Shown: positions 5,326 through 52,399 of the stretch, piece after piece | Numbering within the stretch: position 1 is the stretch's first letter | How the letters are laid out: the number at the start of each line of letters is the position of its first letter | Origin: Clostridia bacterium | GTDB lineage: Bacteria; Bacillota; Clostridia; TANB77; RGIG9151 | Assembly (NCBI GenBank): GCA_017450465.1 | Contig: JAFSUW010000003.1 | Location: 4,481-68,480, forward strand | Direction: 5' to 3' | Length of the DNA: 64,000 bases | Notes under the pieces: generated by a model | Told to the model about the DNA's origin: nothing | Seen by the model: only the letters and a program-made list of their open reading frames with translations | The model's database searches: none | Translations under genes and position numbers: made by a program

Positions 5326-5344
5326 TTTTTTTGTTGTCAGAAGG

Positions 5345-5433
5345 GACGGGGGCAATTGACCACAATTATGTAGAGTGGTCAATTGCCCCCGTCCCTTCTG
5401 ACAAGCCCGTCCCTGTTGACCACTTTTATAAAT
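5345..5433. repeat. GC-rich palindromic intergenic repeat element, copy 1 (28-bp perfect inverted arms plus partial third arm)
   Basis: TGTCAGAAGGGACGGGGGCAATTGACCAC / GTGGTCAATTGCCCCCGTCCCTTCTGACA separated by a 12-nt loop, then AGCCCGTCCCTGTTGACCAC. Second copy at 51674-51767. Confidence 0.7.
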
Positions 5434-6325: not shown

Positions 6326-6423
6326 GTTATCAACTCCTTATATGTTCAACTTAAGGGTAACAAAAAAGGAAAATCTACTCAATGCAAAATTTATGGTAGC
6401 AGTGGAAAAAAAGGACAAAAAAA

Positions 6424-6450
6424 TCCCCAGGGGTTGCCTGGGGTATGGTT
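6424..6450 (-). terminator. intrinsic terminator of the 6457-7227 cassette (CCCCAGGGGTTGCCTGGGG plus U-tract on minus strand)
   Basis: Hairpin is followed by a T-run when read on the minus strand. Confidence 0.6.
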
Positions 6451-6456
6451 GCTTGT

Positions 6457-7227
6457 TTAATGTTTTGTTTTAATGAGCCAGAAGGGAATCTCGAGGGTTC
6501 TGAGTTCTTGCGGAGTGAAGTTTTGAATCGGGATAACCTCTTGGTAATGGCGGTCATCGACGCGGTCTTCGTAGTAGACATGGACCGATTTGTACGACGC
6601 GAGATAAACGAATTCAAACTTTTTCGTATGGTCCTCGGTCTCGAACTTGAATGCGAGGTCTTTGTAGAGAGACATGAGAATCGAATCGACTACACGCCAT
6701 TTGTGGAGTTCCTGATTCATGATTCTTTCCATCTCATTGGTGTCTTCTTCGGTTGCGTTGTAGAAGAACTTTTTTTCGTTCTCTCTTTTGACACCGCAGA
6801 GGAAAAGGTTTACGTCGCCGGTTCTTCCGAGGTAACGGATGAAGCTTTCCGGAACGTTCCTTTTTTTGAAGATGGGGAGCATCTTGGCAGGATGGAAGCG
6901 GTAGGTGTCGTACAGCTCCTCAATAATTTCTATAATCTTGAAAAGCTTGAAGTTGTGCTTCCAGATGATAGGATGATCTTCATACTTTAATCCCACTTCG
7001 ATGTGTCCATCATCTTCAAAGGAGATTGCGATGAGTTCATATAAAACTGTCTTGGGTTTCCTTTTTTTGTTTACGATGTGCTTTCGAGTTTCTTCTTCGA
7101 TAGGGGCGAATGCCCAGCCGATTTCTACCTCCTTGCCTTCGAGCTTTTTTGATGCGATGAGCTTTGCGAGCAAGATGTTTTTGATGATCTTGCTTTGAGT
7201 GTTCAGGTAGTACGCAACAGGCTGCAT
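6457..7227 (-). CDS. hypothetical 256-aa protein, atypical GC (about 45-50%, C-ending codons ATC/CTC/TTC/GAC), monocistronic cassette
   Basis: Long ORF with strong GAGGAGG RBS, own promoter and terminator. No family recognised from the translation. Confidence 0.55.
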   Translation of the reverse strand: MQPVAYYLNTQSKIIKNILLAKLIASKKLEGKEVEIGWAFAPIEEETRKHIVNKKRKPKTVLYELIAISFEDDGHIEVGLKYEDHPIIWKHNFKLFKIIEIIEELYDTYRFHPAKMLPIFKKRNVPESFIRYLGRTGDVNLFLCGVKRENEKKFFYNATEEDTNEMERIMNQELHKWRVVDSILMSLYKDLAFKFETEDHTKKFEFVYLASYKSVHVYYEDRVDDRHYQEVIPIQNFTPQELRTLEIPFWLIKTKH

Positions 7228-7297
7228 AAGTCCTCCTCGTTGTTCAACGTCCTACGCCAATGTGTTTTGGCGCATAAACATTTTTATTTTACACTTT

Positions 7298-7326
7298 ATA
7301 ATATCACATTTATAATTTTATGTCAA
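7298..7326 (-). promoter_or_regulatory. near-consensus sigma-A promoter: TTGACA, 17-nt spacer, TGaTATTAT
   Basis: Read on the minus strand. Shares the 15-mer TTTAGTTGACATAAA with the promoter at 28544-28572. Confidence 0.5.
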
Positions 7327-7600
7327 CTAAATAAAGGAATAAAAAAACTATAAACACTATATATAGTATTTATAGTTTTAAAAGTTTAATAATTCCAAAA
7401 CGACATCAGCTAATTTATCGTTTTGTGAGGCAAGTAAATCTTTAAAATTTTCTTGCACCTTATTTTTTAAGTTTTTTAATATACTACGCGTTTCCATGTA
7501 GTCAAGATTAAGGTAAAACATAATTTTCATTCCTTTCCATAGTCTACATAATTATTATCGGCAAAAATTATGGTAAACTTAATAGTTTTTGCATAAGAAT

Positions 7601-14103: not shown

Positions 14104-14150
14104 GAATATAAAAAACCAGTAACGTTTATACAAATGTTGCTGGTTTTACT

Positions 14151-14178
14151 TTACATAATTAATTCATTATGGTATAAT
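14151..14178 (+). promoter_or_regulatory. promoter TTACAT, 16-nt spacer, TGgTATAAT for the GC-rich cassette
   Basis: Extended -10 read from sequence, about 125 nt upstream of ATG 14305. Confidence 0.45.
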
Positions 14179-14304
14179 ATATATATGTTAAATTCTATAC
14201 TGACAAGAAAGGAGAAAGTTCTTCTTTTGGACGTTTAACCCGCTATGCACTGTGCTGAGTGCGTACGCAACCAGGACGTTTAAAAAAGAAGAACAAATCT
14301 AACC

Positions 14305-15075
14305 ATGACTGAAACTTACGTAATTCTCGCGGCGATGTGCATCATCGCAATTTTCGCGATTATCGCCCTCTGCGTTGGTAAGGCGAAAAAGACCACGACC
14401 ACGACGAAGAACGACCACATCTGCGTTGATGACACCGGTATGTACGGAGGACTCCGCGAGTACCACGAGCGGAACCGCACTACCGACGTCGATGAAGATG
14501 AGATCTACGAGACCGACGAAGAAGACTACGACGAACCCGATGAGCCGGAAAAGCCGAACCTTGATGCCTATATGAAGGCGGAAGAGGAAGCAGCCGAAAC
14601 CGGCGTTGAAGTCGAGAACGGAATCGAAGCCGAATCGGGCATCAAGGCGCAGAACATTGCGTACGCAGAGCCCGAAATGGTTGCTGAACCCGAAGCCGAG
14701 AACGAACCCGAGGTAATCGAACCGGAACCGGAGCCCGTAAGGGCGGTCGTGCCGGTAAGAAAGCCGACGGAACAGGAGTTTGCGAAACAGAGGCCGCGTG
14801 AAAAGACCGCCTGGGACAAGGCGAAGGCGTGGCTTTGGGCTGCGCTCATCGTACTCGCAATTGCGGTCATCTTGGCCCTCGCAGCCACGGCTTACGAGAC
14901 CCTGACGGGTCAGCCCATCGGCGTCAAGTTCTGGACCGTCGCACTCGCAATCATCGCCACCATCTTCATGGCCGTCTGCGCTATCAAATATCGGCGCGAC
15001 AAAGACGCCTGGGTATGGTGGACCATCGCAATCGTATGTGCGGTCGTTGCCGCATACGCGTGGTTCAAACTTTAA
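14305..15075 (+). CDS. hypothetical polytopic membrane protein with acidic Pro/Glu-rich linker, strongly atypical GC (about 55-60%)
   Basis: N-terminal TM, EPEAENEPEVIEPEPEP low-complexity linker, three C-terminal TM helices. GC3-rich codons. No obvious SD. Several long overlapping ORFs in other frames are GC artefacts. Confidence 0.55.
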   Translation: MTETYVILAAMCIIAIFAIIALCVGKAKKTTTTTKNDHICVDDTGMYGGLREYHERNRTTDVDEDEIYETDEEDYDEPDEPEKPNLDAYMKAEEEAAETGVEVENGIEAESGIKAQNIAYAEPEMVAEPEAENEPEVIEPEPEPVRAVVPVRKPTEQEFAKQRPREKTAWDKAKAWLWAALIVLAIAVILALAATAYETLTGQPIGVKFWTVALAIIATIFMAVCAIKYRRDKDAWVWWTIAIVCAVVAAYAWFKL

Positions 15076-15090
15076 CCCCCCTATCAGATA

Positions 15091-15121
15091 CCCCGTACAG
15101 CACTACGGGGTTTTGTTTTTT
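15091..15121 (+). terminator. intrinsic terminator CCCCGTA-cagcac-TACGGGG plus T-run
   Basis: 7-bp GC stem followed by TTTTGTTTTTT. Confidence 0.65.
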
Positions 15122-15178: not shown

Positions 15179-15474
15179 TACATTTAGTAATTCTACATAA
15201 TTTACAGTTTAATAACAAAAAACAAATAAAGCGAATTCATCACGTAGTTTGTTAGCATTTTTCCAAAACAGCTTATGGTCGTCAAAAAAGCCGGATGCTT
15301 TTTTGAGTGAGTATGCGACATGGATGTCGTCATACGAGCGACCACCATTTGTTTTGGCAAAAAATGCAACAAATGAAGTGTTAGAATGAAGCGATTTGTT
15401 TTTTGTTATTTGTAAATTTCTTATACTTGCCAAACTTTATAAATAATAGTATCATTTACATTGAGGTGAAATAC

Positions 15475-20074: not shown

Positions 20075-23000
20075 ATGTCGGATAAAAAATTATATGAACT
20101 AACTGAGCAGCAACAAGGAATGTGGTATACTGAAAAACTTTATCCTAATACAAGCATGGGTTCAATTACTGGTATAATAAAAATAAAGGATACTATTAAT
20201 TTTGAAGTTTTAGAAAAAGCTATAAATAAATTTGTTGAAAAAAATGATGCAATGCGATTAATAATTACCGAAGAAAATGGTAATCCAATGCAATATGTAT
20301 CTGACTTTAAGTATTCAAAACTAAAATTTATAGATTTTTCTAAAAAAGATACCAAAGATTTATATGAATGGGAAGAAAACGAAGCTAAAAAAGCATTTGA
20401 TATACATAATTCTTTGCTTTTTGAATTTGTTATGTTCAAAGCAGCAAATGAGGGTGGTTTTGTAATTAGAGTACACCATATTATTTCTGATGCTTGGAGT
20501 TTGGTAAATCTTTCTAGTAAAGTTATCGAAAATTACATTAAAATGAAGAACAATGCATACGCTGAAGAAAATAATGCACCTTCATATATTGATTTCATAA
20601 ATAGTGAAAAAGAATATTTAGCTTCAAAACGTTTTAATTTAGATAAGAAGTACTGGGAAGATAAACTTAGTATTTTTGAAGATATAACAACACTAAAAGA
20701 AAATAAATCTGACAATACAAGTATAAAATCAAAAAGAAAAACTTTTGTATTACCTGAAAAACTTTCAAATAAGATCCGGGAATTTTGCAAAGAGAAAAAG
20801 GTTTCAGAGTATACTTTATTTATTGCGGCAATTTCTATGTACATAAATAGAACGAGAAATAAAGAAGATATGTTCTTTGGAACATCTTTATTAAACCGTT
20901 CTACAAAGGCCGAAAAAGAAACAATGGGTATGTTTGTAAATGCTGCTGTTCCTGTACACGTTAAAGTAAATGGCGAAAGCAATTTCGATGATTTTATTGA
21001 ATCTATTTCTAAAGAACTACTATCTACACTCAAACATCAAAAATATCCATACTCTGAAATGACTAAGTTTACTAAGAAAACTAAACTTTTCGATATCGTA
21101 TTAAACTACCAAAATGCTAAACTTAATCACAAATTAGATTTAGATTACTTAACTCGTTGGGTTGTTAATGATTCACAAATAGAATCTTTAATAGTAAATG
21201 TAAACGATAGAGATGGCGAAGGTAATCTAATTATCGACTATGATTATTTAACTGATTTATTTTATGCTAAAGAAGTTGATTTCATACATCAACATATTAT
21301 AAATATCTTGTGGCATGCACTTGATAACTGCAAGAAACCAATTGCAGATTTAGAAATGCTTTCTGAAGTTGAAAAAGACAAGATTTTGCATAAGTTTAAT
21401 GATGACAACGCAACATATGACCACAATATAACTATTCATGAAATATTTGAAAAGCAAGTAGAAAAATATCCAAATAATATTGCCTTAACATTTGATGGCA
21501 AAAACATGACATATAAAGAGTTAAATGAAAAAGCAAATGCTCTTGCACATATTTTGCGTAAAAACGGCTTAAAACGTGAAGATATAGTTTGTATGATACT
21601 AGATAAATCGTTTAATACAATTATATCTATTTTGGCTATCTTAAAATCAGGCGGAGCATATTTACCAATTTTACCTGATTACCCAACTGAAAGAATAGAT
21701 TTTATGCTTGCAGATAGTGGCTCCAAGTTTTTAATCACACAAAAAGAATATAAAGGCAAATATAAATTTGATGGACTGATTTTATGTGCTGATGATGAAA
21801 AAATTTATAACGAAGATAAAACAAATTTACCAAATGTAAATAAGCCAGAAGATTTGCTTTACATAATTTATACTTCTGGTTCAACAGGTAAGCCAAAAGG
21901 CGTTATGCTTGAGCATAGAAATGTTGTACGTCTTTTATATAATAGTGCGTTCCAATTTGATTTTAATGACAAAGATGTTTGGACTATGTTCCATTCATAT
22001 TGCTTTGATTTCTCGGTTTGGGAAATGTACGGTGCATTATTATATGGTGGGCGCCTTGTTATAATACCTAAAGAAATCTCTCGTGATGTCCAAGAATTCT
22101 TAAAGGTACTTCGTAAAGAAAAAGTTACAATATTAAATCAAACACCAAACGTATTTTATAATTTAGTAAATGAAGAAGTTAAAGAAAAAAATGCTGATTT
22201 AGTTATTAGATATATTGTTTTTGGTGGAGAGGCATTAAAACCTACAATGCTAAAGCCATTTAGGGATAAATATCCAAAAACAAAACTAATCAATATGTAT
22301 GGAATAACTGAAACAACAGTTCACGTTACTTTTAAGGATTTATCCGATGAAGATATCGCAAGTAGTAAGAGTAATATAGGTAAACCAATACCTACACTTA
22401 AAACTTACATCATGGACAAAAACTTAAAACTTTTACCTGTAAATACTCCAGGTGAAATTTGCGTAACTGGTGCTGGTGTTGCAAGAGGTTACTTAAATAG
22501 ACCTGAACTAACAAAAGAAAAATTTGTTGTAAACCCTTATAATCCTACTGAGCGTATGTATCGTTCTGGAGATCTCGGAAGATACTATGCTGAAGGTGAT
22601 ATCGAATATTTAGGAAGAATAGACAATCAAGTAAAAATTCGTGGTTTTAGGGTTGAACTTGATGAAATTGAACGTACTATTCTTACTTTTGATGGTGCAA
22701 AAAATGCACTCGTAATGGCTAAAAAGGATAACAATGAAAAGAATTTCCTTTGTGCATATGTTGTAAAAACTAAAGATATTGATGTACAAAAATTAAGAGA
22801 ACATTTAGCAAAAACTTTACCAGACTATATGGTACCGGCTTATTATGTATTTTTAGATGCGTTTCCGCTTACTGTAAATGGTAAAATAGATAGAAAAAAT
22901 CTACCTGAACCAGAAGCAGTTGACAATACTATATATATTGCACCTGTAACTGAAACCGAGAAAATACTTGCAAGCACTTTTGCTGAGGTACTAAATAAAG

Positions 23001-24367
23001 AAAAAGTCGGAACAGATGATAATTTGTTCCACATTGGCGGCGATTCACTAACTGTTATTCAATTATTAACACGGCTATATAAATATAATTTCAAACTCAC
23101 GGCAGCAGATTTTTATGAATATCCAACAATAAAATTACTAGCAAGCAAAATTGATGGCGAAGTAAAGAAAGAAAAGAAAGTATCTAGTAAAGAAGAAATT
23201 TTAAAACCATTGCCATACAAAGAAGTTAGTAAAATAGAACCTCAAAAATTATCTGGGAATGTGCTTTTAACTGGTGCCACTGGATTTTTAGGCTCACACA
23301 TTTTAAAAGAATTACTTGATACTACAGATTCTACTATGTACTGTTTAATTCGTTCGAATAAAGAAAAATCTTCACTTGAAAGATTAAAAGATACAATGAA
23401 GTTCTATTTTAAGGACAAAATTAATTATAACAGAATTAAAGTATTAGATGGCGATATAACTGAAGACTATTTAGGATTATCCGAAAAAGAATATGACGAA
23501 CTTGGCAAAGATATAAGGACAATAATACATACTGCAGCACTCGTTAAATACTATGGAGATTATAGTGACTTCGAAAGAATTAACGTTGGTGGTGTAGCAA
23601 ATGTTATAAAACTTGCTAAAAAATATGACATCAAATTAAATCATATTTCTACAATTGGTATTTCTGGAAGTTACCTTGTTGACTGCGACAAAAAGGGCTT
23701 AATTCTTACTGAAAAAGACTTGTTTGTTGGTCAAAATTATAAAGAAAACGTATATGTACATAGTAAATTTGAAGCTGAAAAACTAATTATTCAAGAAGAA
23801 AAGAATGGACTTAAGGCAACCGTATTTAGAATGGGTAACTTGACTGGTCGAAATAGCGATGGTCAGTTCCAGAAAAATATGAATGATAATGCATTTAATA
23901 ATATTATCAAAACTGTAGTATTACTAAAAACAGTGCCTGAAAGTTTAATGGATACTGATGTTGAATTTACACCTGTAGATTTGGCAGCAAAATCATTATT
24001 AAAAATTGCTGCTACTAAAGAATCTACTAATAGAATATTCCATATAACAAACTTCAAAGAAATTAAGTTTAATGTTGTAATGGAAATGCTAAAAAAGATG
24101 TCACTAAATTTAACAGTTCTTTCAAATGATGAATTTAAGAATTTTGTTACAAAAGTTTCTGAAAATAACGACAAGAATAAATACTTAGTAGGTATAATTC
24201 CAGACATGAGTAACTCAAAAGATTTGACTTATGATGTCCCTGTAAAAGTGCATTGTGAAATAACTGAAAGCTTCTTAAAACTTTTAGGATTTGAATGGCC
24301 TGATATTGACTACACATACGTAGAAAAAGTAATTAAACACTTACAAGATAGACATTTCTTTGAATAA
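20075..24367 (+). CDS. single-module non-ribosomal peptide synthetase, C-A-T-R (condensation, adenylation, thiolation, terminal thioester reductase)
   Basis: C3 HHIISDAWS. A-domain cores LKSGGAYLPI, YTSGSTGKPKGV, FDFS, NMYGITETT, GEICVTGAGVARGYL, YRSGDLGRY, GRIDNQVKIRGFRVELDEIE, NGKIDR. PCP site GGDSL. R domain GATGFLGSHIL plus YVHSK. Confidence 0.85.
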   Translation: MSDKKLYELTEQQQGMWYTEKLYPNTSMGSITGIIKIKDTINFEVLEKAINKFVEKNDAMRLIITEENGNPMQYVSDFKYSKLKFIDFSKKDTKDLYEWEENEAKKAFDIHNSLLFEFVMFKAANEGGFVIRVHHIISDAWSLVNLSSKVIENYIKMKNNAYAEENNAPSYIDFINSEKEYLASKRFNLDKKYWEDKLSIFEDITTLKENKSDNTSIKSKRKTFVLPEKLSNKIREFCKEKKVSEYTLFIAAISMYINRTRNKEDMFFGTSLLNRSTKAEKETMGMFVNAAVPVHVKVNGESNFDDFIESISKELLSTLKHQKYPYSEMTKFTKKTKLFDIVLNYQNAKLNHKLDLDYLTRWVVNDSQIESLIVNVNDRDGEGNLIIDYDYLTDLFYAKEVDFIHQHIINILWHALDNCKKPIADLEMLSEVEKDKILHKFNDDNATYDHNITIHEIFEKQVEKYPNNIALTFDGKNMTYKELNEKANALAHILRKNGLKREDIVCMILDKSFNTIISILAILKSGGAYLPILPDYPTERIDFMLADSGSKFLITQKEYKGKYKFDGLILCADDEKIYNEDKTNLPNVNKPEDLLYIIYTSGSTGKPKGVMLEHRNVVRLLYNSAFQFDFNDKDVWTMFHSYCFDFSVWEMYGALLYGGRLVIIPKEISRDVQEFLKVLRKEKVTILNQTPNVFYNLVNEEVKEKNADLVIRYIVFGGEALKPTMLKPFRDKYPKTKLINMYGITETTVHVTFKDLSDEDIASSKSNIGKPIPTLKTYIMDKNLKLLPVNTPGEICVTGAGVARGYLNRPELTKEKFVVNPYNPTERMYRSGDLGRYYAEGDIEYLGRIDNQVKIRGFRVELDEIERTILTFDGAKNALVMAKKDNNEKNFLCAYVVKTKDIDVQKLREHLAKTLPDYMVPAYYVFLDAFPLTVNGKIDRKNLPEPEAVDNTIYIAPVTETEKILASTFAEVLNKEKVGTDDNLFHIGGDSLTVIQLLTRLYKYNFKLTAADFYEYPTIKLLASKIDGEVKKEKKVSSKEEILKPLPYKEVSKIEPQKLSGNVLLTGATGFLGSHILKELLDTTDSTMYCLIRSNKEKSSLERLKDTMKFYFKDKINYNRIKVLDGDITEDYLGLSEKEYDELGKDIRTIIHTAALVKYYGDYSDFERINVGGVANVIKLAKKYDIKLNHISTIGISGSYLVDCDKKGLILTEKDLFVGQNYKENVYVHSKFEAEKLIIQEEKNGLKATVFRMGNLTGRNSDGQFQKNMNDNAFNNIIKTVVLLKTVPESLMDTDVEFTPVDLAAKSLLKIAATKESTNRIFHITNFKEIKFNVVMEMLKKMSLNLTVLSNDEFKNFVTKVSENNDKNKYLVGIIPDMSNSKDLTYDVPVKVHCEITESFLKLLGFEWPDIDYTYVEKVIKHLQDRHFFE

Positions 24368-24395: not shown

Positions 24396-26369
24396 ATGAA
24401 AAAACACAATTATTTAGCTAAAATAATTATGGTGTATAACATTATATTTATTGTTCTTGGTGTAGTATTCTACTTTGTATCACCAGAAATATTAAACTTC
24501 CCACCATATTCAATAAATAACGAATTTGAACGTTCTATGGATTCTGGTCTTAATTTTTACCAACAGTATCTTATAGGAATGCTTGCCCTAATGTTTATTG
24601 GTGACTTATTTGTTTACTTTAGTTTGCGTGGTATTGGTAAATATGCACAAGCAAATCCTGAAGAATTAGAAAAAATAAAAAGAAAATGTTTTACAATTCC
24701 TTATAGATTATATGTTATTCAAACATTGTTACCATTTATTATAGTAACTATATTACTTTACTTAACTGAAACAAAGCCAATTTTAATACTTAAAACAGTT
24801 GCATTAATATTCACATTCTCGACTTTAGTATCAGTAATATCTTATTTGTATTCAAAAAAAGTATTGAAACATTTATTGTTCTCGTTAAATAATTCAGAGG
24901 CATTCAAAAATAAATTACACTTTAATTTTAGAGCAAGAATTTTATTACAATTTTTACCACTTATAGTCGTAGCAATATTATTCCCATCAGTTGCTGGTTA
25001 TTCTTCACTAAACCGTGAACGTGGTGAACTTATTTTCGAAGAATATCAATATTTGTTAAATGATAAATTACAAAACGAATATAAATCACTTAGTGAGTTG
25101 ATGTTAGAATTAAAAGAAATTCCAATGAGAAATGAGCAAGATAGTATCTTCATTGTAGATATAAATAGAAAAGTTCATTATCCTGCTGATGAAGAATTAA
25201 GTGAATTCTTTATTAACTATGTATTCCAAGTATCAGACAAATTAGATGGTCACGTCTATGACTATTGGGGATCAGACACCGAAGGTATTGTTATAAAGAA
25301 GATATTTATAGATGGAATGGAATATTATGCGGGTGTTATTTATCCAGCATATTCATATTCTGGCTTAAAATTCTTACTTGTTAGTGTAATAGCAATTTTA
25401 ACTGGTTGTATTTTGTTTTTACTATATTTTTCAAAAGATATTGCAACAGATATTTCTAATGTGTCAGAAATGTTGGCACTATTATCTACACAAGCCGAAA
25501 TTGATTATGATAAAAAGATACCAGTTACATCAAACGATGAAATAGGAGACCTGATAGTCTCATTCAATAAAATACTCGACCTTGAAAAACACAACATAGC
25601 GACTATATCGCGTAACCAAGAAATAATGGTCGAACAAGAACGTTTGTCGTCACTTGGTCAATTAATTGGTGGTATTGCGCACAACCTAAAAACTCCTATC
25701 ATGTCGATAGCAGGAGCAGTAGAAGGGCTTACAGATTTAATTAAAGAGTATGATGAATCAGTTGAAGATAAATCAGTAACACCACAAGATCATCATGAAA
25801 TTGCGCACGACATGCAAGAGTGGGTTGATAAAATAAGACCATACTTAAGTTATATGACTGAAGTTATTGATACAGTTAAAGGTCAGGCCGTTTCAATGAA
25901 TGCAACAACTATGACAAGCTTTAGTGCAAAAGAACTTATGTCTAGAACGCAGATTTTACTTCGTGATGAATTAAAACGTAGACATTGTACATTAAACTTG
26001 AAGTTTGAAGTCGATGAAAACAGTAATATAGCTGGAGAAATAAGTGCTATAGTTCAAGTCATTGATAACTTAATAATTAACGCTATGGACGCTTATAAAG
26101 GCGAACCTGGTACAATTGATATATTAGTCCATGAAGATGCCAAGAAGATATATATCGACGTTAAAGACTATGCTGGAGGAATTCCAAAACACGTTCAAGA
26201 ACGTTTGTTTAAAGAGATGGTAACGTCAAAAGGTAAAAATGGTACTGGTCTTGGATTATATATGTCATATTCAACTATTAAAGGCAAATTTAATGGTGAT
26301 ATGCGTTACGAAACAAAAGAAGGAGAAGGTACAACATTCTTCATTGAATTAAATAAATATAAAGGATAA
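24396..26369 (+). CDS. polytopic membrane sensor histidine kinase (orphan; no response regulator nearby)
   Basis: At least six N-terminal TM helices. H-box GGIAHNLKTP, N-box NLIINAMDA, G1 DYAGGIP, G2 GTGLGL. Starts 28 nt after the NRPS stop. Confidence 0.8.
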   Translation: MKKHNYLAKIIMVYNIIFIVLGVVFYFVSPEILNFPPYSINNEFERSMDSGLNFYQQYLIGMLALMFIGDLFVYFSLRGIGKYAQANPEELEKIKRKCFTIPYRLYVIQTLLPFIIVTILLYLTETKPILILKTVALIFTFSTLVSVISYLYSKKVLKHLLFSLNNSEAFKNKLHFNFRARILLQFLPLIVVAILFPSVAGYSSLNRERGELIFEEYQYLLNDKLQNEYKSLSELMLELKEIPMRNEQDSIFIVDINRKVHYPADEELSEFFINYVFQVSDKLDGHVYDYWGSDTEGIVIKKIFIDGMEYYAGVIYPAYSYSGLKFLLVSVIAILTGCILFLLYFSKDIATDISNVSEMLALLSTQAEIDYDKKIPVTSNDEIGDLIVSFNKILDLEKHNIATISRNQEIMVEQERLSSLGQLIGGIAHNLKTPIMSIAGAVEGLTDLIKEYDESVEDKSVTPQDHHEIAHDMQEWVDKIRPYLSYMTEVIDTVKGQAVSMNATTMTSFSAKELMSRTQILLRDELKRRHCTLNLKFEVDENSNIAGEISAIVQVIDNLIINAMDAYKGEPGTIDILVHEDAKKIYIDVKDYAGGIPKHVQERLFKEMVTSKGKNGTGLGLYMSYSTIKGKFNGDMRYETKEGEGTTFFIELNKYKG

Positions 26370-26392: not shown

Positions 26393-26420
26393 AAGGGGAG
26401 AACAGAAGTTCTCTCCTTTT
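26393..26420. terminator. bidirectional intrinsic terminator AGGGGAGAAC-agaa-GTTCTCTCCTTTTT
   Basis: Sits between the convergent HK and recombinase genes. Confidence 0.65.
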
Positions 26421-27397
26421 TAATCATCTTTTTCTTCTTGTTCAAAATCAGCAAGAGGATTTTTATTTACTGCATCTTTTAATTGTTCTTTATTAGTATG
26501 CGTATAAATTTCTGTAGTTGCGACGCTTTCATGACCAAGAATTTCCTGCAAAGACCTTATATCAACATTACCATACTGATACATCAAAGTGGCAGCGGTA
26601 TGACGAAGTTTATGGGGAGTTATTTTGTCAGTATCAAGACCGGCCTCAGCAAGGTATTTTTTGACTATATATTGAACGGCACGAGGACTGATACGCTTTT
26701 TTCGTTCACTTAAGAATAATGCATTTCTATCTTTAACACCTTCGCGTGGACGGACGCGCATATATTCGTTTAGGGCGGTTTTTGAGGCATGGTTAAGGTA
26801 AACGGTCCTCTCTTTATTGCCCTTGCCTATAACGGTCAATTTGTCGTCCTTGATTTGGTTAATATTTATTGAAATTAGCTCACTAAGCCGCAATCCGCAG
26901 TTTAAGAATAGGGTAATAATAGCATAGTCACGTTCCTTATTATCGCCATCAATGGCATTAAGTAGCTGTTTACTCTCATCAACGTTTAAGTATTTAGGTA
27001 TACGTTTGCCAAGTTTCGGCGATTCAAGCTCTTTAGCAGGGTTTTGATCGAGTATTTTGGCTTTAACAGTAAGATAATTAAACAGTGAACGTATAGATGC
27101 AACTTTACGAGCCCTTGAAACAACTTTGTTGGATCTATCTAACTCTAAATAATTCATGTACGCATAAAGGTCGCTTAAATCGATTTTTTTCATAAATTCG
27201 ATATCTATGTCATAAACTTCAATAGACTCGAAATTTGAGGAAACAGGAACGAGTCGAAAATGAAGTTTCAAAAACCTTAAAAAATTCCTGAGGTCATAAT
27301 GATATTCACGAATAGTATTAGATGATTTGCCTTTAATAGTACTCATATAACTTAAGAAATCTTGTACGAATGCTGGAACGTCTGTATAATCGGTCAT
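26420..27397 (-). CDS. XerC/XerD-family tyrosine site-specific recombinase
   Basis: C-terminal catalytic region HKLRHTAATLMYQYG...LGHESVATTEIYTH (R-H-R-Y signature). N-terminal SAM-like domain. 325 aa. Confidence 0.8.
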   Translation of the reverse strand: MTDYTDVPAFVQDFLSYMSTIKGKSSNTIREYHYDLRNFLRFLKLHFRLVPVSSNFESIEVYDIDIEFMKKIDLSDLYAYMNYLELDRSNKVVSRARKVASIRSLFNYLTVKAKILDQNPAKELESPKLGKRIPKYLNVDESKQLLNAIDGDNKERDYAIITLFLNCGLRLSELISININQIKDDKLTVIGKGNKERTVYLNHASKTALNEYMRVRPREGVKDRNALFLSERKKRISPRAVQYIVKKYLAEAGLDTDKITPHKLRHTAATLMYQYGNVDIRSLQEILGHESVATTEIYTHTNKEQLKDAVNKNPLADFEQEEKDD

Positions 27398-27530
27398 TTT
27401 GCGCCTCCTTCTATCGTTTTTCGCAAAATTTTTATTTTGCGCAATTAGGAATATACAAAAACAAGGATAAATTTACTACTACCACTACTGCTATCAATGA
27501 AAAAATATATTTTAGAAAGGATCGGTAATT

Positions 27531-27959
27531 ATGCAAAAAATAAATTTTAAAATAATTTTTATATTTTCCTTACTTATAATTATCGGCTTTTGTATAGTTT
27601 TTTATTATATTGAACTTGCAAATACTATAATTATAACTAAGGATAATTATATAGAAATTTTGCGTAATTGTCACGATAACATCGATGATTTTGTTGGCAA
27701 AAAAATTGTTGTTTCAGGTTATGTCTACTTGCAAGACAATTTTAGTTTTAATCATTTTGTTATTGCCAAAAATTTAGTTGTAATGCCTGGAGGTGAACCA
27801 TATGTTGTAGGTTTTTTATGTGAAAATTTGACTGACTACTCCTTCTACTCTAACGATACCATAAGAATTAAAGGAAAAATAGTTAAAGGAAACTTTAACG
27901 GTATTGATTACCCTATTATACAGTTTAAAAATTTTGAATTTGTGCCATATAAAACATGA
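27531..27959 (+). CDS. small membrane-anchored hypothetical protein
   Basis: N-terminal TM (IIFIFSLLIIIGFCIVFYYI) then an approximately 110-aa soluble domain. Confidence 0.4.
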   Translation: MQKINFKIIFIFSLLIIIGFCIVFYYIELANTIIITKDNYIEILRNCHDNIDDFVGKKIVVSGYVYLQDNFSFNHFVIAKNLVVMPGGEPYVVGFLCENLTDYSFYSNDTIRIKGKIVKGNFNGIDYPIIQFKNFEFVPYKT

Positions 27960-28012
27960 TTTAAAAGAAAAAAAGCGGATAGAATGCAAATTCTATCCAC
28001 TCGGCAAAAGAT

Positions 28013-28480
28013 TCATGAAAAATCTCGTCTATTAAACTGGATCCCGCAGCGTACGTTTGTGTGTGACCCGATGAAGTCGTTGAATATTATGTTGCAATGT
28101 CTACTGCATTTATCACACACGCCTTTTGGAAGTTCCTTCATCGAAACCAGCGCCTTGAAATACATGTTTACCGAATCGTCGTCTTGGTTTACGAACTTAA
28201 AATCGTGAGGGTCAATTACTCTGTTAAATATTGCACCAGAATAGTTACAAACAACATCTTTCTTACCCGCAATGTAGCTTAAGTACAGCTGATTTTTTCT
28301 GGTATCCTTAGCAATATTTACTCGTACACTTATTTCTTTATTACGCGGGCATACTAAATTGTTTACCGCTGAAAGTCGTTCTCCTGTCCACTCATGCCAT
28401 TCGTTGCAAAAAGGACAAAGCCATTTTACTGGCCTTAGCTTTGATAGTTTTCTGAACATAATGTCTCCTTTTTTGTACAT
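28013..28480 (-). CDS. hypothetical Cys-rich (zinc-ribbon-like) 155-aa protein; 3' half has raised GC; monocistronic cassette
   Basis: CPFC...C and CDKCSRHC clusters. AAAGGAG RBS, own consensus promoter and terminator. Confidence 0.45.
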   Translation of the reverse strand: MYKKGDIMFRKLSKLRPVKWLCPFCNEWHEWTGERLSAVNNLVCPRNKEISVRVNIAKDTRKNQLYLSYIAGKKDVVCNYSGAIFNRVIDPHDFKFVNQDDDSVNMYFKALVSMKELPKGVCDKCSRHCNIIFNDFIGSHTNVRCGIQFNRRDFS

Positions 28481-28543
28481 AGGTGTTTTATACGACCTTG
28501 GGTTTTAAGTTTGCCAATATGTTCATCAAAATGAACAGAATGA

Positions 28544-28572
28544 ATTATATCACCAAAATATATTTATGTCAA
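28544..28572 (-). promoter_or_regulatory. consensus sigma-A promoter TTGACA, 17-nt spacer, TGaTATAAT
   Basis: Read on minus strand. Contains the same 15-mer TTTAGTTGACATAAA as 7317-7331. Confidence 0.55.
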
Positions 28573-28607
28573 CTAAAGAAAAAGGGCGATTATTACTCGC
28601 CCCTGTA

Positions 28608-29838: not shown

Positions 29839-30114
29839 TTACTTATTAACGCTTGCTTTTAATGCTTTACCAGCTTTGAATACAGGAGCATTCTTTGCAG
29901 GAATCTTGATTGTTTTCTTTGTTTGTGGGTTGATTCCTTCTCTTGCTTTTCTTGTTCTTACTTCAAAAGTACCGAAACCAACAAGACCTACTTTATCACC
30001 TTTCTTTAATCTCTCTGTAACTGTTGCAACGAATGCATTTAATGCACATTCTGAATCCTTCTTTGTTAAATTTGTTTTTTCTGCAATACTTGCGATTAAT
30101 TCGGCTTTGTTCAT
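29839..30114 (-). CDS. hup: DNA-binding protein HU
   Basis: MNKAELIASIAEKT...GFGTFEVRTRKAREGINPQT, about 91 aa. Followed by a hairpin plus T-run terminator at 29786-29815. Confidence 0.9.
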   Translation of the reverse strand: MNKAELIASIAEKTNLTKKDSECALNAFVATVTERLKKGDKVGLVGFGTFEVRTRKAREGINPQTKKTIKIPAKNAPVFKAGKALKASVNK

Positions 30115-30267
30115 CTTAAAATTACCTCCCTTAAAATTTTGTTAATTTCTAACTTCCATTGTATTTATCGGCAATCCATGGAAAACTTTATAGTATTTTA
30201 CTAAAAAAATAAATTTTTCTCGTAAAATATTGTTGCCATAAATTTGGAAAATATTCAGGAAGTTTAG

Positions 30268-33310: not shown

Positions 33311-36300
33311 CTATCGTTCATAAATTTCGTAACTACCTGCTGTTGAATAACCATGCGAATTATCTTCATAATTTTCTGCTACTGCACTATCTACATAATA
33401 ACTACCTGGTAATAAGTTTCTTACCGTATATGTAATAGTTGCTTCGTTACTATTCTTATAGTTGTTCTTATATACTTCAAAGTATAACTTCTGCCCTTCC
33501 TTATTTAACAAATACCAATTATTTGATGAATAACTTGAACCATTAGTATGTGTAAATCTCATACCTGTTGGTACGACATCAGATATCAAATATCTTGCAT
33601 TTTCAGAATTTGCTGGGAATTTAACGTTAATTGTTACTGTTACTTCGTCCCCAACATTTCTTCCACCTGAAATACTCTTTTTAATGCTTATCTTGTTTTC
33701 GTCTACAACGTCAGTTAAGTTTCCAAAGTAGAATGCTTTACATTTAACACCACTATGAGCCGTTACTTTGAAGCTATTTAAGTCATTTTCATTTAATACT
33801 AATCTATAAAATCTTTTGCCTGAAAAATCTACGTTTTCTTTTTCGCCGTTTAGTTTATATTCTAATGTACCTTTATGGTCTGTCTTAGGGTTAAATACCT
33901 TTAAGTAAGAAGCAAGGTCAAGAGCTGGAGTATACTTATCTGATTTATTATCTATAACATACCTTAAGAAATCTTTCATATCGGTATTATTACATTTAAT
34001 TAATGCAATTAGTAAACTTGAAGTTGCTTCATAGTTTTCATCGTTATTACCAATTTGGATATAACGTGAACCACTGTTTCCTTTAACACTACCACTTAAT
34101 AATTTTACATACCACTGCGTTGCTCCATTAATATCTCCAATGTATGCAAGACCAGATATTAAGTTTATATTATCTCTCATTGTAAATCCACTATTGTTAG
34201 TTAATAAATAATTTATATCATTTAATACTGGTTCTTTTAAGGCAGCAAGTCCAAAGTACGCTGCGCTTACTTCTTCACTTGTTGCATCTTTCTTAGCTAA
34301 TATGTTATTGAAATAATATTTAGCTTCTTTTGCATCTAAATACTCAGGCGCAATAGCACATAATTTTGCTGTAAATAATACATCTGCATCTGCATATGAA
34401 AGTATTTGTGCACCACCAGTATAAGATTGTATATCATTAAATTCTTCTATTTCGTAAATATCTTCACCTGCAAATGTATTAAATCTTTCATAAACAAGAT
34501 TTCTTGCTATTTTTTGGTCATTGGTTCTGCCCCAACTTGTTGCAAGTATTTTGCTTATGTTATCGTAATATAAACCGTTTTCTTCATTATAGAATGTTAA
34601 AGTTACAGGGAAACGTGCCGCTTCTATATCTAATGCTTTAGATAAATTTACATCACTTACTATAGGTATTTCATGTAATGACGAAAGTACTGTAATAGGT
34701 TTCTTTATACCATCTGTATAATTTCCAGCAGCCACTTTAACACTTACATCGTAAGTACCTTCAGGTAATTTCCCAAAATTAAATACTGCTATATCATTTT
34801 TATTTTTTGTTAATTCAATTTCTTGATCTTTACCATTACCACTGATTTTTGCAACATATTTTACATCATCAGGTACATTTTTCTTGTCACTACCAGCTAT
34901 TCTTGCAGTAAATACAACATCATCATCTTTTGCATATTTTGTATTTATTACTTGGTTAACAAAGAATGGCAACCCGCAAGTTATATTTTTAGTAGCAGAA
35001 CCTGCACGAATGTTGTCTGTAATACCAACAGCAGTTATTCTCCAAGAAGTTAAATTGTCTGGTAATTTAAATGATGCAGTTGTCTTTCCGTTACTACCAG
35101 TAGTTATGTTGATAAAGGCTGCAGTATCTGCAAAATCACTTCTATAACCTTCATCGCCACCTTCACCACCTGCTTCTGCAGTAGTGTAATTTCTTCTTAT
35201 TACATTTGAAACATATTGAGTAACACTATGATAATCGTATGAATATAATCTAGATAAAACATATACTTCTTGATTTCTTATGGCAAATGCTGCTTCATCT
35301 ACAACACTCATTATAAGTTTTGTTTTAGCATATTTCCCGCTTTTATCTTTTGCTTCTACTGTCATATTTACTGTATCTCCAGGATTATATGCTTCTTTAT
35401 CAGTTGAAATTGTAATATCTAAACTTCTATCATTATATTCAAAATATACATGTCTATCACTTAATGCATAAACATTTTTACCATCAAAGTATGCTCCTGC
35501 TACTCCAATATCTGGAACATATTCTTCCTTAAAGGTAAATGAAATTTCATCTTTATTTGTAACTGCACTTTCTAGCAAAGTATCATTATATAATGTGTAC
35601 AATATTTTGCCATCATTAGTAATACGATTACCTTTTTTATTAAGGAATAATTTTACTTCATCTTTTACAGAATATGTCCATTCATCATTTTCAGTACTTA
35701 ATGAATAATAATCTCCATAATAGTAATCATCATCATCATAGTACGCTGAATCATATTTAAACCAATTATAAAGAGTTGTCTTACCTTTAAATCCATCTTT
35801 TAAGGTATATTCTAATTCTGCAGTATACCATACATTCTTTTCATCAGGATATGTAGTAGTAATTTTAGTTTCACCATTTACAGTAAACGGAATTGTATCA
35901 ATGGTAGTTGTTTCAGTTCTATAATTATATTTTTTACGATTTACTCTATTAATATAGTCATAGTATTCTCCTGCTTCTTCTCTAATTGACTCATGTTTTA
36001 TTACTTTTATAGTACCTGTTGCAGTTGATCCTGCACCTTTTAACTTATCGTAATTGCCATAAGTATATTCATCCCATTTTCCAAAATTGATACTATTAGT
36101 TGATAATGTAATTTCATTATTTACCCAATCTGCTTCAAACATATAGTTTGAAGGGAAAAATGTTGCATAGCACTCAGTCCATGCATTATTCTCGTCATCT
36201 CCAGTGGTACTAATCTCTTGCCATATAGTAGTTGGATGCCAAGAAGTAGCCGGATATCTAAATGCACTATTTTGTAAAACTCTTGTTACTTCTTTTGTTC

Positions 36301-51673: not shown

Positions 51674-51767
51674 TTGTCAGCGGGGACAGCTTGTCAGAAG
51701 GGACGGGGGCAACTGACCACTTTGCTTTACATAAATGTGGTCATTTGCCCCCGTCCCTATTGACAGA
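51674..51767. repeat. GC-rich palindromic intergenic repeat element, copy 2 (inverted orientation relative to copy 1)
   Basis: TTGTCAGAAGGGACGGGGGCAACTGACCAC / GTGGTCATTTGCCCCCGTCCCTATTGACAG arms with partial extra arm GTTGTCAGCGGGGACAGC on the opposite side from copy 1. Confidence 0.7.
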
Positions 51768-51790
51768 AAACACCGTTTTTGTTTTTTAAG

Positions 51791-51819
51791 TTGCATTTTT
51801 CACCATATTCTGTTAAAAT
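51791..51819 (+). promoter_or_regulatory. promoter TTGCAT, 17-nt spacer, TAAAAT
   Basis: Read from sequence. TAGGAGGT RBS 8 nt before ATG 51901. Confidence 0.45.
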
Positions 51820-51900
51820 TAATTTGGTAGACGTAACGTAGCAAGTATGAATGAGTTAAAAATTATTCAGGACGTAAGGCATAAATAGGAGGTATTTATT

Positions 51901-52365
51901 ATGCCAGTTGTATTAAAAGTTGAAACCGGATGGATTCTCCCAACAGGAGAAAAAATCCTGCTCGGCAACAAGTATCACTCTGATATTGTCGCGTTATTTT
52001 TGACCGGGCTACTCGAAGTTGATCCTTCTTTGGGCCGATACTGCATAAACCAACTGAAAAATTACGCAAAGCAGTTTCCTGCCCTGGGGACTACCGACAT
52101 CATCGAGGATTTCGCGGTCTTCCGTCTTCGATGGATCAAAATCGGCAACAATCGTGGATACAACAACAACATGACAATCACGATTGCTCGATACGATTTT
52201 TATGCCGAAACCATCAAGCGGTATCAGAACCAGGGTTATTTCGTAAATGTCGTAACCCCTCCGGCCGGTCACACCTATGAAGCAATCGAAGCACGCGAAT
52301 ATGAGAAACTCAACATCCAGGGGGTATTAAGCAAAGGAAATTTAAATTTAACACTTGACAACTAA
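51901..52365 (+). CDS. hypothetical 154-aa protein, atypical GC (about 45%), monocistronic cassette
   Basis: Strong RBS, own promoter, terminator AAAGGCACT...AGTGCCTTTT at 52369-52400. No family recognised. Confidence 0.5.
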   Translation: MPVVLKVETGWILPTGEKILLGNKYHSDIVALFLTGLLEVDPSLGRYCINQLKNYAKQFPALGTTDIIEDFAVFRLRWIKIGNNRGYNNNMTITIARYDFYAETIKRYQNQGYFVNVVTPPAGHTYEAIEAREYEKLNIQGVLSKGNLNLTLDN

Positions 52366-52399
52366 TAAAAAGGCACTTCCTATCAAAAGGGAGTGCCTT

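Follow-up and report, generated by a model that had tools for sequence, protein, structure and literature searches.

The described systems closest to the locus analyzed here are of several kinds. (i) Single-gene Abi and defense cassettes, such as the lactococcal Abi genes and the single-gene systems of PADLOC, are monocistronic, carry their own strong promoter and terminator, are atypical in composition, diverge fast, show a narrow and patchy distribution, and need no enzymatic signature. Abi genes usually exceed their host in AT content rather than in GC content. (ii) Compositional islets, which stand out by a sharp local change in GC content and codon usage and carry genes of no known function, are routinely scored as horizontal transfer. 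(iii) CsrA-controlled leaders, such as those of Bacillus subtilis hag and Clostridium difficile fliC, are about 65 to 90 nt long and contain one GGA site upstream and another overlapping the Shine-Dalgarno (SD) sequence; for C. difficile fliC, the sites BS1 and BS2 have been proposed to be TGACAAGGATGT and CTAAGGAGGG, respectively (PMC8523840). (iv) According to the fold rule, highly expressed prokaryotic genes prefer C in the pyrimidine-ending codons of 2/3-fold boxes and U over C in 4-fold codon boxes (Wald et al. 2012, PMC3424539). (v) The Pur-alpha/PUR (Whirly-like) fold consists of one chain with two repeats, in each of which a helix comes after a four-stranded antiparallel sheet.

The gene under study encodes a 256-aa protein (GenBank record MBQ7667744.1), and the features of its locus in the window, that is, the whole stretch of 64,000 nucleotides that was analyzed, are compiled in Table 1. 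The TTGACA-17-TGaTATTAT promoter, the GAGGAGG ribosome-binding site, and the gene's own terminator, all reported in the preliminary description, were confirmed on the minus strand. From the promoter, we infer a transcription start near position 7291 and hence a predicted 5' UTR of about 63 nt. The terminator stem-loop reads CCCCAGGcaaccCCTGGGG (6443-6425) and is followed by the T-run.

Table 1. Coordinates of the features of the 256-aa gene and of the small ORF upstream (positions of the window)
Feature	Position	Strand	Remarks
Intrinsic terminator	6415..6443	-	Stem of 7 bp (6 GC pairs), loop of 5 nt, T-run
CDS, 256 aa	6457..7227	-	ATG at 7227, TAA stop at 6459-6457; GC 0.44, GC3 0.59; small unnamed family
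Shine-Dalgarno sequence GAGGAGG	7232..7238	-	4 nt ahead of ATG
5'-UTR motif AGGACGTT (class AGGWCGTW)	7246..7253	-	ATG 26 nt further on
5'-UTR hairpin GCGCCAA-aacaca-TTGGCGT	7254..7273	-	In MFE fold; abuts motif
Extended -10 element TGaTATTAT	7298..7306	-	Spacer 17 nt; TG 7306-7305, TATTAT 7303-7298
-35 hexamer	7321..7326	-	TTGACA, perfect match to consensus
Small-ORF terminator	7341-7379	-	AT-rich hairpin and T-run, read from sequence
Small ORF, 47-50 aa	7378..7530	-	C-terminal KLADVV-ELL-F; separately transcribed and terminated
SigmaD-like promoter of small ORF, TAAG-N15-GCCGATAA	7555..7581	-	Conserved in three lineages; putative, assigned by consensus

The gene is monocistronic. The small ORF upstream is separately terminated, and the gene that follows downstream starts on its own. 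The unit is, as had been proposed at the outset, self-contained, strongly promoted, monocistronic, and of atypical composition. A stringent promoter test on both strands of the 64 kb, which demanded a -35 hexamer with at least 5 of 6 matches, the TG, and a -10 hexamer with at least 5 of 6 matches, was passed by 4 sites; 3 of these drive GC3-rich ORFans, including the 256-aa gene. The promoter of this gene is more than a chance match. Since at least six samples yielded a total of seven further contigs with this DNA at ≥99.8% identity, the locus is no assembly artefact. Loci L001 to L007 represent one strain or population and P0003 differs from the target protein by one residue, so that a comparison of strains is uninformative. 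A search of Rfam 15 returned no match within positions 6400 to 7340, either at the gathering threshold or at an E value of ≤10. The ORF codes for a protein, because it is conserved at the protein level and modeled confidently by AF2; for these reasons and given the lack of an Rfam match, a reading of the cassette as a structured RNA was dropped.

The composition of the gene is atypical for its host, in line with the preliminary description. The GC content of the coding sequence is 43.8% (0.38 to 0.47 in 200-bp windows) versus a mean of 0.313 for the whole window, and its GC3 of 0.59 compares with 0.195 ± 0.03 for 37 other ORFs, corresponding to a z-score of about 13. C occupies 40% of the third positions, versus 6 to 7% in housekeeping genes, and G-ending codons are likewise doubled. 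The atypical composition has sharp edges, one close to the UTR and the other at the terminator. This GC excess is purely synonymous: GC1 (0.48), GC2 (0.25), and the amino acid make-up are host-like, with FYMINK and GARP values of 0.387 and 0.152 versus host means of 0.369 and 0.172, both within the host range. A foreign signature at nonsynonymous sites or in the amino acid make-up was thus not found by GC1, GC2, FYMINK, or GARP. The amino acid composition is of the AT type in all members of the family.

This family is small (15 clusters in a set of 1.8 billion proteins), and the closest homologue (P0002; GCA_016648615.1) is 59% identical to the target. The nine homologues whose DNA was examined, which represent eight further clusters of the 15, are all found on AT-rich contigs. 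GC3 values in the family are 0.19, 0.25, 0.32, 0.35, 0.36, 0.36, 0.38, 0.43, 0.52, and 0.59, with neighboring genes at 0.12 to 0.31; the homologue with a value of 0.52 (L077; 26% identical to the target) adjoins an fhs gene with a GC3 of 0.18, and the L012 orthologue, which has the 5'-UTR motif, is native in GC3 at 0.19. The preliminary description had named an unchanged GC content of this gene in all close relatives as the mark of an ancient resident: the gene does look resident, but its GC3 varies by lineage from 0.19 to 0.59.

A number of features of the locus recur in relatives. (i) The small ORF is followed by the family gene and, further on, by a gene for a SleB-like hydrolase in both the target locus and L012, the only contig long enough for the SleB-like gene to be visible downstream (that of L014 ends past chromate-transporter genes). 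The small ORF and the family gene also occur together in L012/L013, L014, and the P0002 contig, where the copies of the small ORF are 49 to 51% identical to that of the target locus; the orthologues there follow the same small ORF, and absence of the gene from this site was not seen. (ii) The family protein is 37% identical between L012 and L014, versus 75 to 77% for the neighbors, and 28% identical between the target and L012, versus 60% for the SleB-like protein. The ranking of family identities parallels that of neighbor identities, and the family protein evolves about twice as fast as the neighbors. (iii) The -35 hexamer is TTGACA in L010, L012, L014, and L015 and TTGACT in L017, and promoter elements and motif are kept in orthologues although the rest of the intergenic DNA is unalignable. 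(iv) Across lineages, the family occupies at least four different contexts. Searches of phage, plasmid, and IMG/VR collections yielded no homologue of the 256-aa protein, and the unit is not flanked by an integrase, a tRNA gene, or a direct repeat. A scan of 185,579 species genomes, which covers only close relatives because exact 8-mers from the target protein were used, returned no relative. The home of the unit is an AT-rich uncultured clostridial lineage of rumen and gut samples. The alignment of the family is too divergent for a pattern-based search for loci.

The 5'-UTR motif links the gene to others in the window. Each of the four ORFs with the highest GC3 starts 26 to 39 nt downstream of a copy of AGGWCGTW, of which the window has five in all, and the chance that four of five copies fall in those 5' UTRs is about 4e-13 by position. 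Besides the 256-aa gene, whose leader contains AGGACGUU, three unrelated ORFans of the window combine this promoter type and this motif with a raised GC3. The motif also precedes the family genes in L012, L014, L008/L009, and L017, but is absent at four family loci (L010, L015, L016, and L077); further copies were not detected by a sequence-only motif model in L010, L015, L016, L076, and L077. In the RNA, (C)AGGWCGUW lies 37 to 50 nt past the -10 element and between a few and about 30 nt ahead of the SD. As the motif is missing at four loci and GC3 is 0.19 in L012, motif and recoding are not strictly coupled. The homologue of cassette C3 has a GC3 of 0.355, versus 0.50 for the copy in the window. 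In cassette 2, GC1, GC2, and GARP are raised too; this cassette looks truly foreign, which weakens a single in situ explanation for all cassettes.

Several identities were considered for the motif and rejected. A hairpin abuts it also in C3, L012, and L017, yet no consensus structure or hairpin is common to all loci of which it could be part. It is read as Q/K-D/V-V by short uORFs in C2, C3, C4, and L017, but these uORFs have no SDs and the conservation is at the nucleotide and not at the codon level, which argues against the end of a leader peptide. An ECF-sigma -10 element (CGTA/CGTC) was discarded for the lack of a consistent -35 element, and a Spo0A box, cre, a CtsR box, ops, and an integron core site for mismatches in each.

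The 256-aa protein has a mass of 30.8 kDa, a pI of 7.8 (7.8 to 9.6 in the family), and no hydrophobic segment. Two independent AF2 models (pLDDT of 93 to 94) agree in topology and predict two similar alpha/beta lobes, each consisting of a sheet of four strands between a long helix and a second helix. A comparison of the N- and C-terminal lobes by hhalign gave only a match of a 20-residue helix (E value of 0.058) and thus no detectable internal sequence repeat, so that an internal duplication was rejected. The invariant residues of the family are F, G, L, and P, those nearly invariant are K16, N17, W89, W142, and Y166, and no conserved catalytic-type residues were found. That the translation resembles nothing recognizable, as noted initially, was corroborated: the protein had no match in Pfam, NCBIfam, PADLOC, PHROG, and PDB sequences, where the 16 family members gave nothing significant or consistent, just scattered single-member matches. 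Foldseek searches of the PDB and BFVD with an E value of ≤1e-3 likewise gave no match, so the fold is confidently predicted and a solved relative was not found in these libraries.

The likeness to single-gene Abi and defense cassettes extends to transcription as a lone unit, composition, fast divergence, and narrow patchy distribution. The target differs from them in its conserved chromosomal position in relatives and in being GC-richer than its host. None of the 5,027 models of PADLOC-DB 2.0 matched the 256-aa protein, a single one of the 16 family members gave stray subthreshold matches, to "2TM effector" models, and no defense-island or mobile-element context was present at the locus. With respect to a candidate toxin-antitoxin or toxin-immunity pair, a conserved small ORF adjoins the target; it has its own promoter and terminator, and neither protein matched a toxin or antitoxin family. 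A role in defense or toxin immunity is without positive support, but the fast evolution of the protein would still fit a role in conflict.

The unit had initially been taken for a horizontally acquired one. Recent acquisition from a GC-richer donor or, in a weaker form, replacement of the resident allele by a divergent one from a GC-richer relative, possibly with a gene for defense or immunity, would account for a codon usage unlike that of bulk genes and of HU, for the sharp compositional edges, for the fast divergence of the protein, for the several contexts of the family, and for cassette 2, atypical at GC1 and GC2 too; in its local and sharp deviation and its lack of a known function, the gene also resembles the islets ascribed to transfer. 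It differs from these islets in that the deviation is synonymous only and the amino acid composition is of the type of an AT-rich proteome, in the lack of mobility genes and flanking repeats, and in having the same synteny in relatives, where promoter type and 5'-UTR motif are kept. With all examined homologues on AT-rich contigs, none in the phage, plasmid, and IMG/VR collections, no flanking integrase or tRNA gene, and no PADLOC match, the claim of acquisition is not supported. Any donor would have to be sought among AT-type relatives with a GC3-rich copy, which merely moves the puzzle, and we consider an import unlikely; an allele from an unsampled, GC-richer relative may nevertheless have replaced the resident one, since the codons of the target resemble those of GC-richer genomes. 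Ordinary translational selection, under which the gene would be among the most highly expressed and its codons the optimal ones of the organism, fits the consensus promoter, the strong SD, and the strong terminator, as well as the marked preference for C-ending codons for Phe, Tyr, Asn, Asp, Ile, and Cys. The C fraction of pyrimidine-ending codons in 2/3-fold boxes is 0.72 in the target and 0.45 in the HU gene (29839-30114), with 0.13 to 0.21 in housekeeping genes. Family homologues of other lineages conform to the fold rule: those of L008, L009, L015, and L017, as well as cassette 4, show an HU-like pattern (0.42 to 0.61 in 2/3-fold and 0.19 to 0.36 in 4-fold boxes). The target breaks the rule because C is as high in its 4-fold boxes (0.68; 38 C versus 18 T) as in the 2/3-fold boxes, whereas HU obeys it (0.06). 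Moreover, the target uses CTC, ACC, GTC, CCC, and CCG where HU has TTA, CTT, ACA, GTT, and CCA; CTC alone amounts to 68% of its Leu codons and is not used in HU. The codon bias of the target, including the doubled G-ending codons, differs from the translational optimum of the organism, for which the reference is a single gene, HU, with 90 codons. Plain expression bias is thus very unlikely. We favor, with somewhat less than even confidence, an old resident gene of the AT-rich lineage, the silent sites of which were recoded to C within the lineage and whose product may be an abundant, nonenzymatic binding protein controlled through its UTR.

Two more specific readings of the function were weighed against this one. 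The protein could be an abundant nucleic acid binder of the PUR/Whirly type or a PCNA-like two-lobed protein, associated with the nucleoid or with RNA. The two lobes with four strands and a helix in each, the mostly basic pI of the family, and expression signals like those of HU are in accordance with this idea, and Pur-alpha recurs top-ranked in Foldseek (probability of 0.35 for both models), although not significantly. The superposition on Pur-alpha (E values of 0.12 to 0.5, probability of ≤0.35, TM score of ≤0.29, and rmsd of 15 to 20 Å) is at the level of noise, the PUR and Whirly profiles of Pfam matched none of the 16 family members, and the lobes differ from PUR repeats in beginning with an extra helix of 25 to 30 residues and in being joined by a helical linker of about 50 residues. 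Considering also that a basic pI is common among AT-rich proteomes and that nucleoid proteins usually evolve slowly, which this protein does not, we judge this assignment quite unlikely. Even less can be said for an accessory role in the flagellar or motility regulon, in which case the mRNA of the gene would be under a CsrA-type repressor like flagellin mRNA. The target UTR, with GGA sites in AGGACGU and in the SD GAGGAGGAC, resembles the BS1/BS2 layout of C. difficile fliC and the CsrA-controlled leaders in general; the gene is associated in the genome with a sigmaD-type promoter through the small ORF, with its conserved TAAG-N15-GCCGATA(T/A) element, and once to flagellin, in L015, where the family gene is directly upstream of the flagellin gene. 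However, the motif does not always contain GGA, since the variant AGGUCGU exists in three lineages, and the L014 UTR is entirely devoid of GGA; the pair of a loop-borne upstream GGA and a second GGA overlapping the SD was therefore not found to be conserved across the orthologues, although the target has both GGA sites. In contrast to the known CsrA-controlled leaders, the motif is outside any hairpin loop and the promoter of the family gene itself is of the sigma-A type. Flagellar genes were not found in the window, and three unrelated ORFans carry the same motif. A place in the flagellar regulon is highly improbable.

According to the reading as a recoded resident, transcription would start at an extended -10 promoter of the sigma-A type that is close to consensus, include no other gene, and stop at a strong terminator; the product of the gene is therefore probably made in large amounts. 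The (C)AGGWCGUW element most likely gives posttranscriptional control, either by binding a factor or by stabilizing the message. The absence of catalytic-type residues and of relatives, together with fast evolution, leads us to read the product, a presumably soluble 31-kDa protein, as one with an abundant binding or structural role rather than as an enzyme; it may be a nucleic acid binder or a protein of genetic conflict. By elimination, our best guess at its function is an abundant, nonenzymatic binding protein under posttranscriptional control. The recoding toward C-ending codons would have arisen within the lineage, recurring to a differing degree in other family members and being common, in the same genome, to further ORFans that carry this promoter and this motif. 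As its driver, our preferred guess is selection that acts directly on the mRNA, where a lower frequency of U and A at wobble positions would reduce A-U pairing and the number of AU-rich targets of nucleases.

An extension of this view, which we hold to be rather doubtful, is a second codon dialect of co-regulated orphan genes, defined by the extended -10 promoter, the (C)AGGWCGUW leader, and recoding to C-ending codons against both the mutational bias and the translational optimum. The motif would then be the handle of a dedicated posttranscriptional program that acts via an RNA-binding factor or a processing step, and recoded mRNAs might be long-lived, or translatable when AU-rich messages or their tRNAs fail; candidate states are dormancy, sporulation, and RNase or tRNase activity induced by phages. 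One fast-evolving effector of this program could be the 256-aa protein. Were import or plain expression bias true, the finding would be an ordinary hypothetical gene. The GC and codon signal of the target is strong, yet synteny, amino acids, and regulatory elements indicate a resident. If resident recoding is true, callers of genomic islands that are based on GC content can be misled, and some force holds third-position C at 40% where about 6% is normal. The motif common to four unrelated ORFans offers a concrete handle for finding the regulator.

Two further observations concern the codons of the gene. Insulation from the loss of U34 tRNAs, as caused by anticodon nucleases or Cas13a (PMC11042736), was considered as a purpose of the recoding and is weakened by the codon counts, because AAA still accounts for 52% of the Lys codons and GAA for 68% of the Glu codons. 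The codon profile of the target, with ATC, CTC, ACC, AAC, and TAC, resembles the ordinary usage in genomes with a GC content of 45 to 50%.

Judged from its sequence, cassette 1, the GC-rich single-gene unit encoding GenBank entry MBQ7667744.1 of a "Clostridia bacterium" MAG, looks like a resident, fast-evolving orphan gene with recoded silent sites and a conserved leader motif. The promoter, ribosome-binding site, terminator, and monocistronic layout given in the preliminary description are all present, on the minus strand, and the atypical GC content that it reported was confirmed (43.8% for the coding sequence versus a window mean of 31.3%). Since the small ORF upstream, a conserved neighbor, is closed by its own AT-rich hairpin and T-run, the unit is monocistronic. 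Its promoter is among the 4 sites in 64 kb that pass a stringent test for the extended -10 consensus, and the strength of promoter and terminator suggests high transcription. DNA of the identical locus (at least 99.8%) was found in seven independently assembled contigs from several samples; the locus is thus not a chimera.

Features of cassette 1, of the other GC3-outlier cassettes, and of their surroundings
Feature	Position	Strand	Details
Cassette 1 -35	7326-7321	-	TTGACA
Cassette 1 -10	7303-7298	-	TATTAT; preceded by 17-nt spacer with TG at its end
Cassette 1 leader		-	~63 nt; holds hairpin, octamer, SD
Leader hairpin	7273-7254	-	cassette 1
Leader octamer	7253-7246	-	AGGACGTT
SD	7238-7232	-	GAGGAGG
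Cassette 1 ORF	7227-6457	-	256 codons
Terminator	6443-6425	-	GC-rich, then T-run; 3' of ORF
Small ORF	7378-7530	-	
SigmaD-like promoter	7555-7581	-	precedes small ORF
C2 unit	14135-15111	+	promoter TTTACA-17-TGgTATAAT; 130-nt leader
C2 leader repeats	14229, 14274	+	two copies of GGACGTTTAA within long inverted repeat
C2 ORF	14305-15075	+	256-aa membrane protein, acidic linker; GC3 0.69
TwoAYGGAY RNA	15240-15381	+	Rfam RF01731; 48.5 bits, gathering score 43, E 8e-5
C3 unit	51790-52395	+	promoter TTGCAT-17-TGtTAAAAT; leader with AGACGTAAC and AGGACGTAAG; terminator 3' of ORF
C3 ORF	51901-52365	+	154 aa; GC3 0.50
C4 unit	27985-28580	-	perfect promoter TTGACA-17-TGaTATAAT; leader with hairpin and AGGTCGTA
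C4 ORF	28013-28459	-	about 148 aa, Cys-rich, CxxC motifs; GC3 0.40; probable ATG at 28459
Palindromic element	5334-5404, 51689-51758		~70 bp, GC-rich; copies ~87% identical
NRPS-like gene	20075-24367	+	1430 aa, single module
Histidine-kinase-like gene	24396-26369		follows NRPS-like gene
XerC/D-type tyrosine recombinase	26420-27397		
Cumulative GC skew maximum	~27000-28500		
HU gene	29839-30114		
SigmaD-like promoter	30164-30190	-	precedes HU gene
Alpha-2-macroglobulin genes	33311-38065, 46627-51594	-	large paralogues

GC3 of the target is 0.59, compared to 0.195 ± 0.03 for 37 other ORFs (z-score of ~13); C occupies 40% of its third positions versus 6 to 7% in housekeeping genes, ATA provides 4% of its Ile codons (host, 49%), and G-ending codons are up twofold. 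The highly expressed reference was the HU gene of the window alone (90 codons), HU genes being textbook examples of high expression. Its codon usage follows the fold rule of highly expressed prokaryotic genes, under which 2/3-fold boxes favor C-ending and 4-fold boxes U-ending codons (PMC3424539); its C fractions are 0.45 and 0.06, respectively, and CTC is not used for Leu. The corresponding fractions in the target are 0.72 and 0.68, and CTC makes up 68% of Leu codons (host, 2%). The target codon bias departs from this ordinary expression bias, and the high C fraction in 4-fold boxes makes plain translational selection quite improbable. Family members elsewhere have GC3 values of 0.19 (locus L012, native), 0.25, 0.32, 0.35 to 0.38, and 0.43, most exceeding their neighbors; raised silent-site GC therefore recurs in this family within AT-rich hosts, the shift being strongest in the present genome. 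The family genes of loci L008, L009, L015, and L017 have HU-like codon patterns, those of L010, L012, and L016 are only slightly biased toward C-ending codons, and that of L077 (26% identical to the target) has a GC3 of 0.52 and adjoins an fhs gene with 0.18. The silent sites of the target may have been recoded in situ, perhaps via selection on the mRNA. The preliminary description instead proposed horizontal acquisition, which is not supported in view of synteny in relatives, host-like amino acid composition, and the lack of any mobile link. In L012/L013 and L014, two other lineages represented by contigs of JGI and ENA metagenomes, the family gene comes after a homologous 47- to 49-aa ORF, and the SleB-like hydrolase that neighbors the target downstream is found again further downstream in L012; on the contig of P0002, the closest homologous protein, a 50-aa gene lies just upstream. 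Between the target locus and L012, the hydrolases share 60% identity, the small ORFs 51%, and the family proteins 28%; between L012 and L014, the neighbors are 75 to 77% identical and the family proteins 37%. Family gene and neighbors therefore rank the loci in the same order of relatedness, but the family gene diverges about twice as fast. Across members only 24 to 28% identical (L012, L014, L008/L009, and L017), whose intergenic DNA is otherwise unalignable, a TTGACA -35, a TG-extended -10, and the octamer AGGWCGTW are kept, the latter 37 to 50 nt past the -10 and 26 to 43 nt ahead of the ATG. A donor of 45 to 50% GC should have altered GC1, GC2, and amino acid usage, and an imported gene is expected to be missing from relatives; neither was seen. 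GC2 of the target is 0.25, its FYMINK and GARP fractions are 0.387 and 0.152 (host means, 0.369 and 0.172), and all family members have an AT-type amino acid composition, the target being typical of an AT-rich proteome. Homologues were absent from 50,697 phage records, 72,556 plasmids, and IMG/VR, and the flanks of the unit are free of mobility genes, tRNA genes, and repeats. Given the retained promoter, octamer, and synteny, together with the AT-type composition, recent or allelic import is unlikely.

When 1.84 billion cluster representatives were searched with the target, 15 proteins were retrieved at an E value of ≤1e-3, and family members are nearly all of 254 to 272 aa and aligned end to end; a word-indexed search of 5.8 billion clusters returned the target itself and P0002 (59% identical). 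The AlphaFold2 model (16-sequence alignment; pLDDT 93, pTM 0.91) predicts two lobes joined by a helical linker, each with a 25- to 30-residue helix, a four-stranded sheet, and a short helix, and a second model, on a 28%-identical member, has the same topology (pLDDT 94). Neither an internal sequence repeat nor a hydrophobic segment was detected in the target; its pI is 7.8 (family, 8.3 to 9.6). Pfam, NCBIfam, PHROGs, PADLOC, and PDB sequences gave no significant or consistent match for target or family, and Foldseek against PDB and BFVD returned nothing at an E value of ≤1e-3, so the initial impression of a translation matching nothing recognized was upheld. The target is in no described family by any test run, which reflects ignorance as much as novelty. 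Pur-alpha and PCNA were the best recurring Foldseek suggestions, yet with TM scores of <0.3, and a PUR-like nucleic-acid binder is accordingly improbable. The invariant residues of the family are F, G, L, and P; because conserved polar residues are few (K16, N17, and a PAK-DK motif), nothing resembles a catalytic set. This and the predicted two-lobe fold suggest a non-enzymatic, binding or structural role. A flagellar accessory factor is very unlikely; the position of the L015 family gene beside flagellin and the sigmaD-like promoter of the small ORF are consistent with it. At L015 (1308-1790), the family gene has an mltG-like gene on one side and the flagellin gene on the other; the flagellin promoter is of the sigmaD type, and the flagellin leader has sites that contain GGA.

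Within this genome, the target is one of a small set of genes with similar architecture. AGGWCGTW occurs 5 times in the window, no more than chance overall, and 4 of the copies are placed 26 to 39 nt ahead of the start codon in precisely cassette 1 (C1) and the three other GC3-outlier ORFan cassettes (C2, C3, and C4). The positional probability of this placement is ~4e-13 for a degenerate motif defined post hoc, which was subsequently confirmed in other organisms. C2 to C4 are each monocistronic with their own terminator, have consensus-like extended -10 promoters, and encode products without a Pfam match; ATC, CTC, TTC, AAC, TAC, and ACC form a codon profile common to C1 to C3, whereas C4 is HU-like. 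The coupling of motif and recoding is not absolute, since L012 combines the motif with native codons and L077 is recoded without it. A hairpin abuts the motif in C1, C3, L012, and L017; no secondary structure is common to all loci, and no Rfam family matched. Its conservation points to leader-based post-transcriptional control. Likenesses to CsrA-type regulation are the GGA inside the motif of the target leader, the sigmaD-like promoter at the neighboring small ORF, and the flagellin gene at L015, and proposed C. difficile fliC sites resemble those of the target leader (PMC8523840). A CsrA-type site nevertheless fits the motif poorly: three lineages have AGGUCGU, and L014 lacks any GGA. The motif is treated here as a conserved leader element.

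C2 is the most foreign-looking cassette of the four: its GC reaches 63%, and GC1 (0.60) and GC2 (0.41) are atypical too. Its protein has one hydrophobic segment at the N-terminal end and three at the C-terminal end, the acidic linker is of low complexity, and no clear SD precedes the annotated ATG. The TwoAYGGAY RNA lies between C2 and a recD2-like gene. Among 5.8 billion clusters, C3 matched itself and one homologue (64% identical; GC3 of 0.355). The palindromic element (TTGTCAGAAGGGACGGGGGCAAyTGACCAC...) resembles a REP or MITE-like hairpin repeat; one copy separates the convergent galT and SleB-like genes, and the other is just upstream of the C3 promoter. Gene orientation flips from mostly plus to mostly minus at the skew maximum, and the replication terminus probably lies within the window; the target, small ORF, and SleB-like gene would therefore be head-on to replication. 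Both sigmaD-like promoters read TAA(A/G)-N14-15-GCCGATAA, and the one before the small ORF is conserved in L012 and L014. The NRPS-like protein comprises condensation, adenylation, carrier, and terminal reductase domains. The alpha-2-macroglobulin gene at 33311 adjoins a Memo-like gene, as in L012, where this pair is immediately beside the block of small ORF and family gene; the block is therefore rearranged relative to the present genome.
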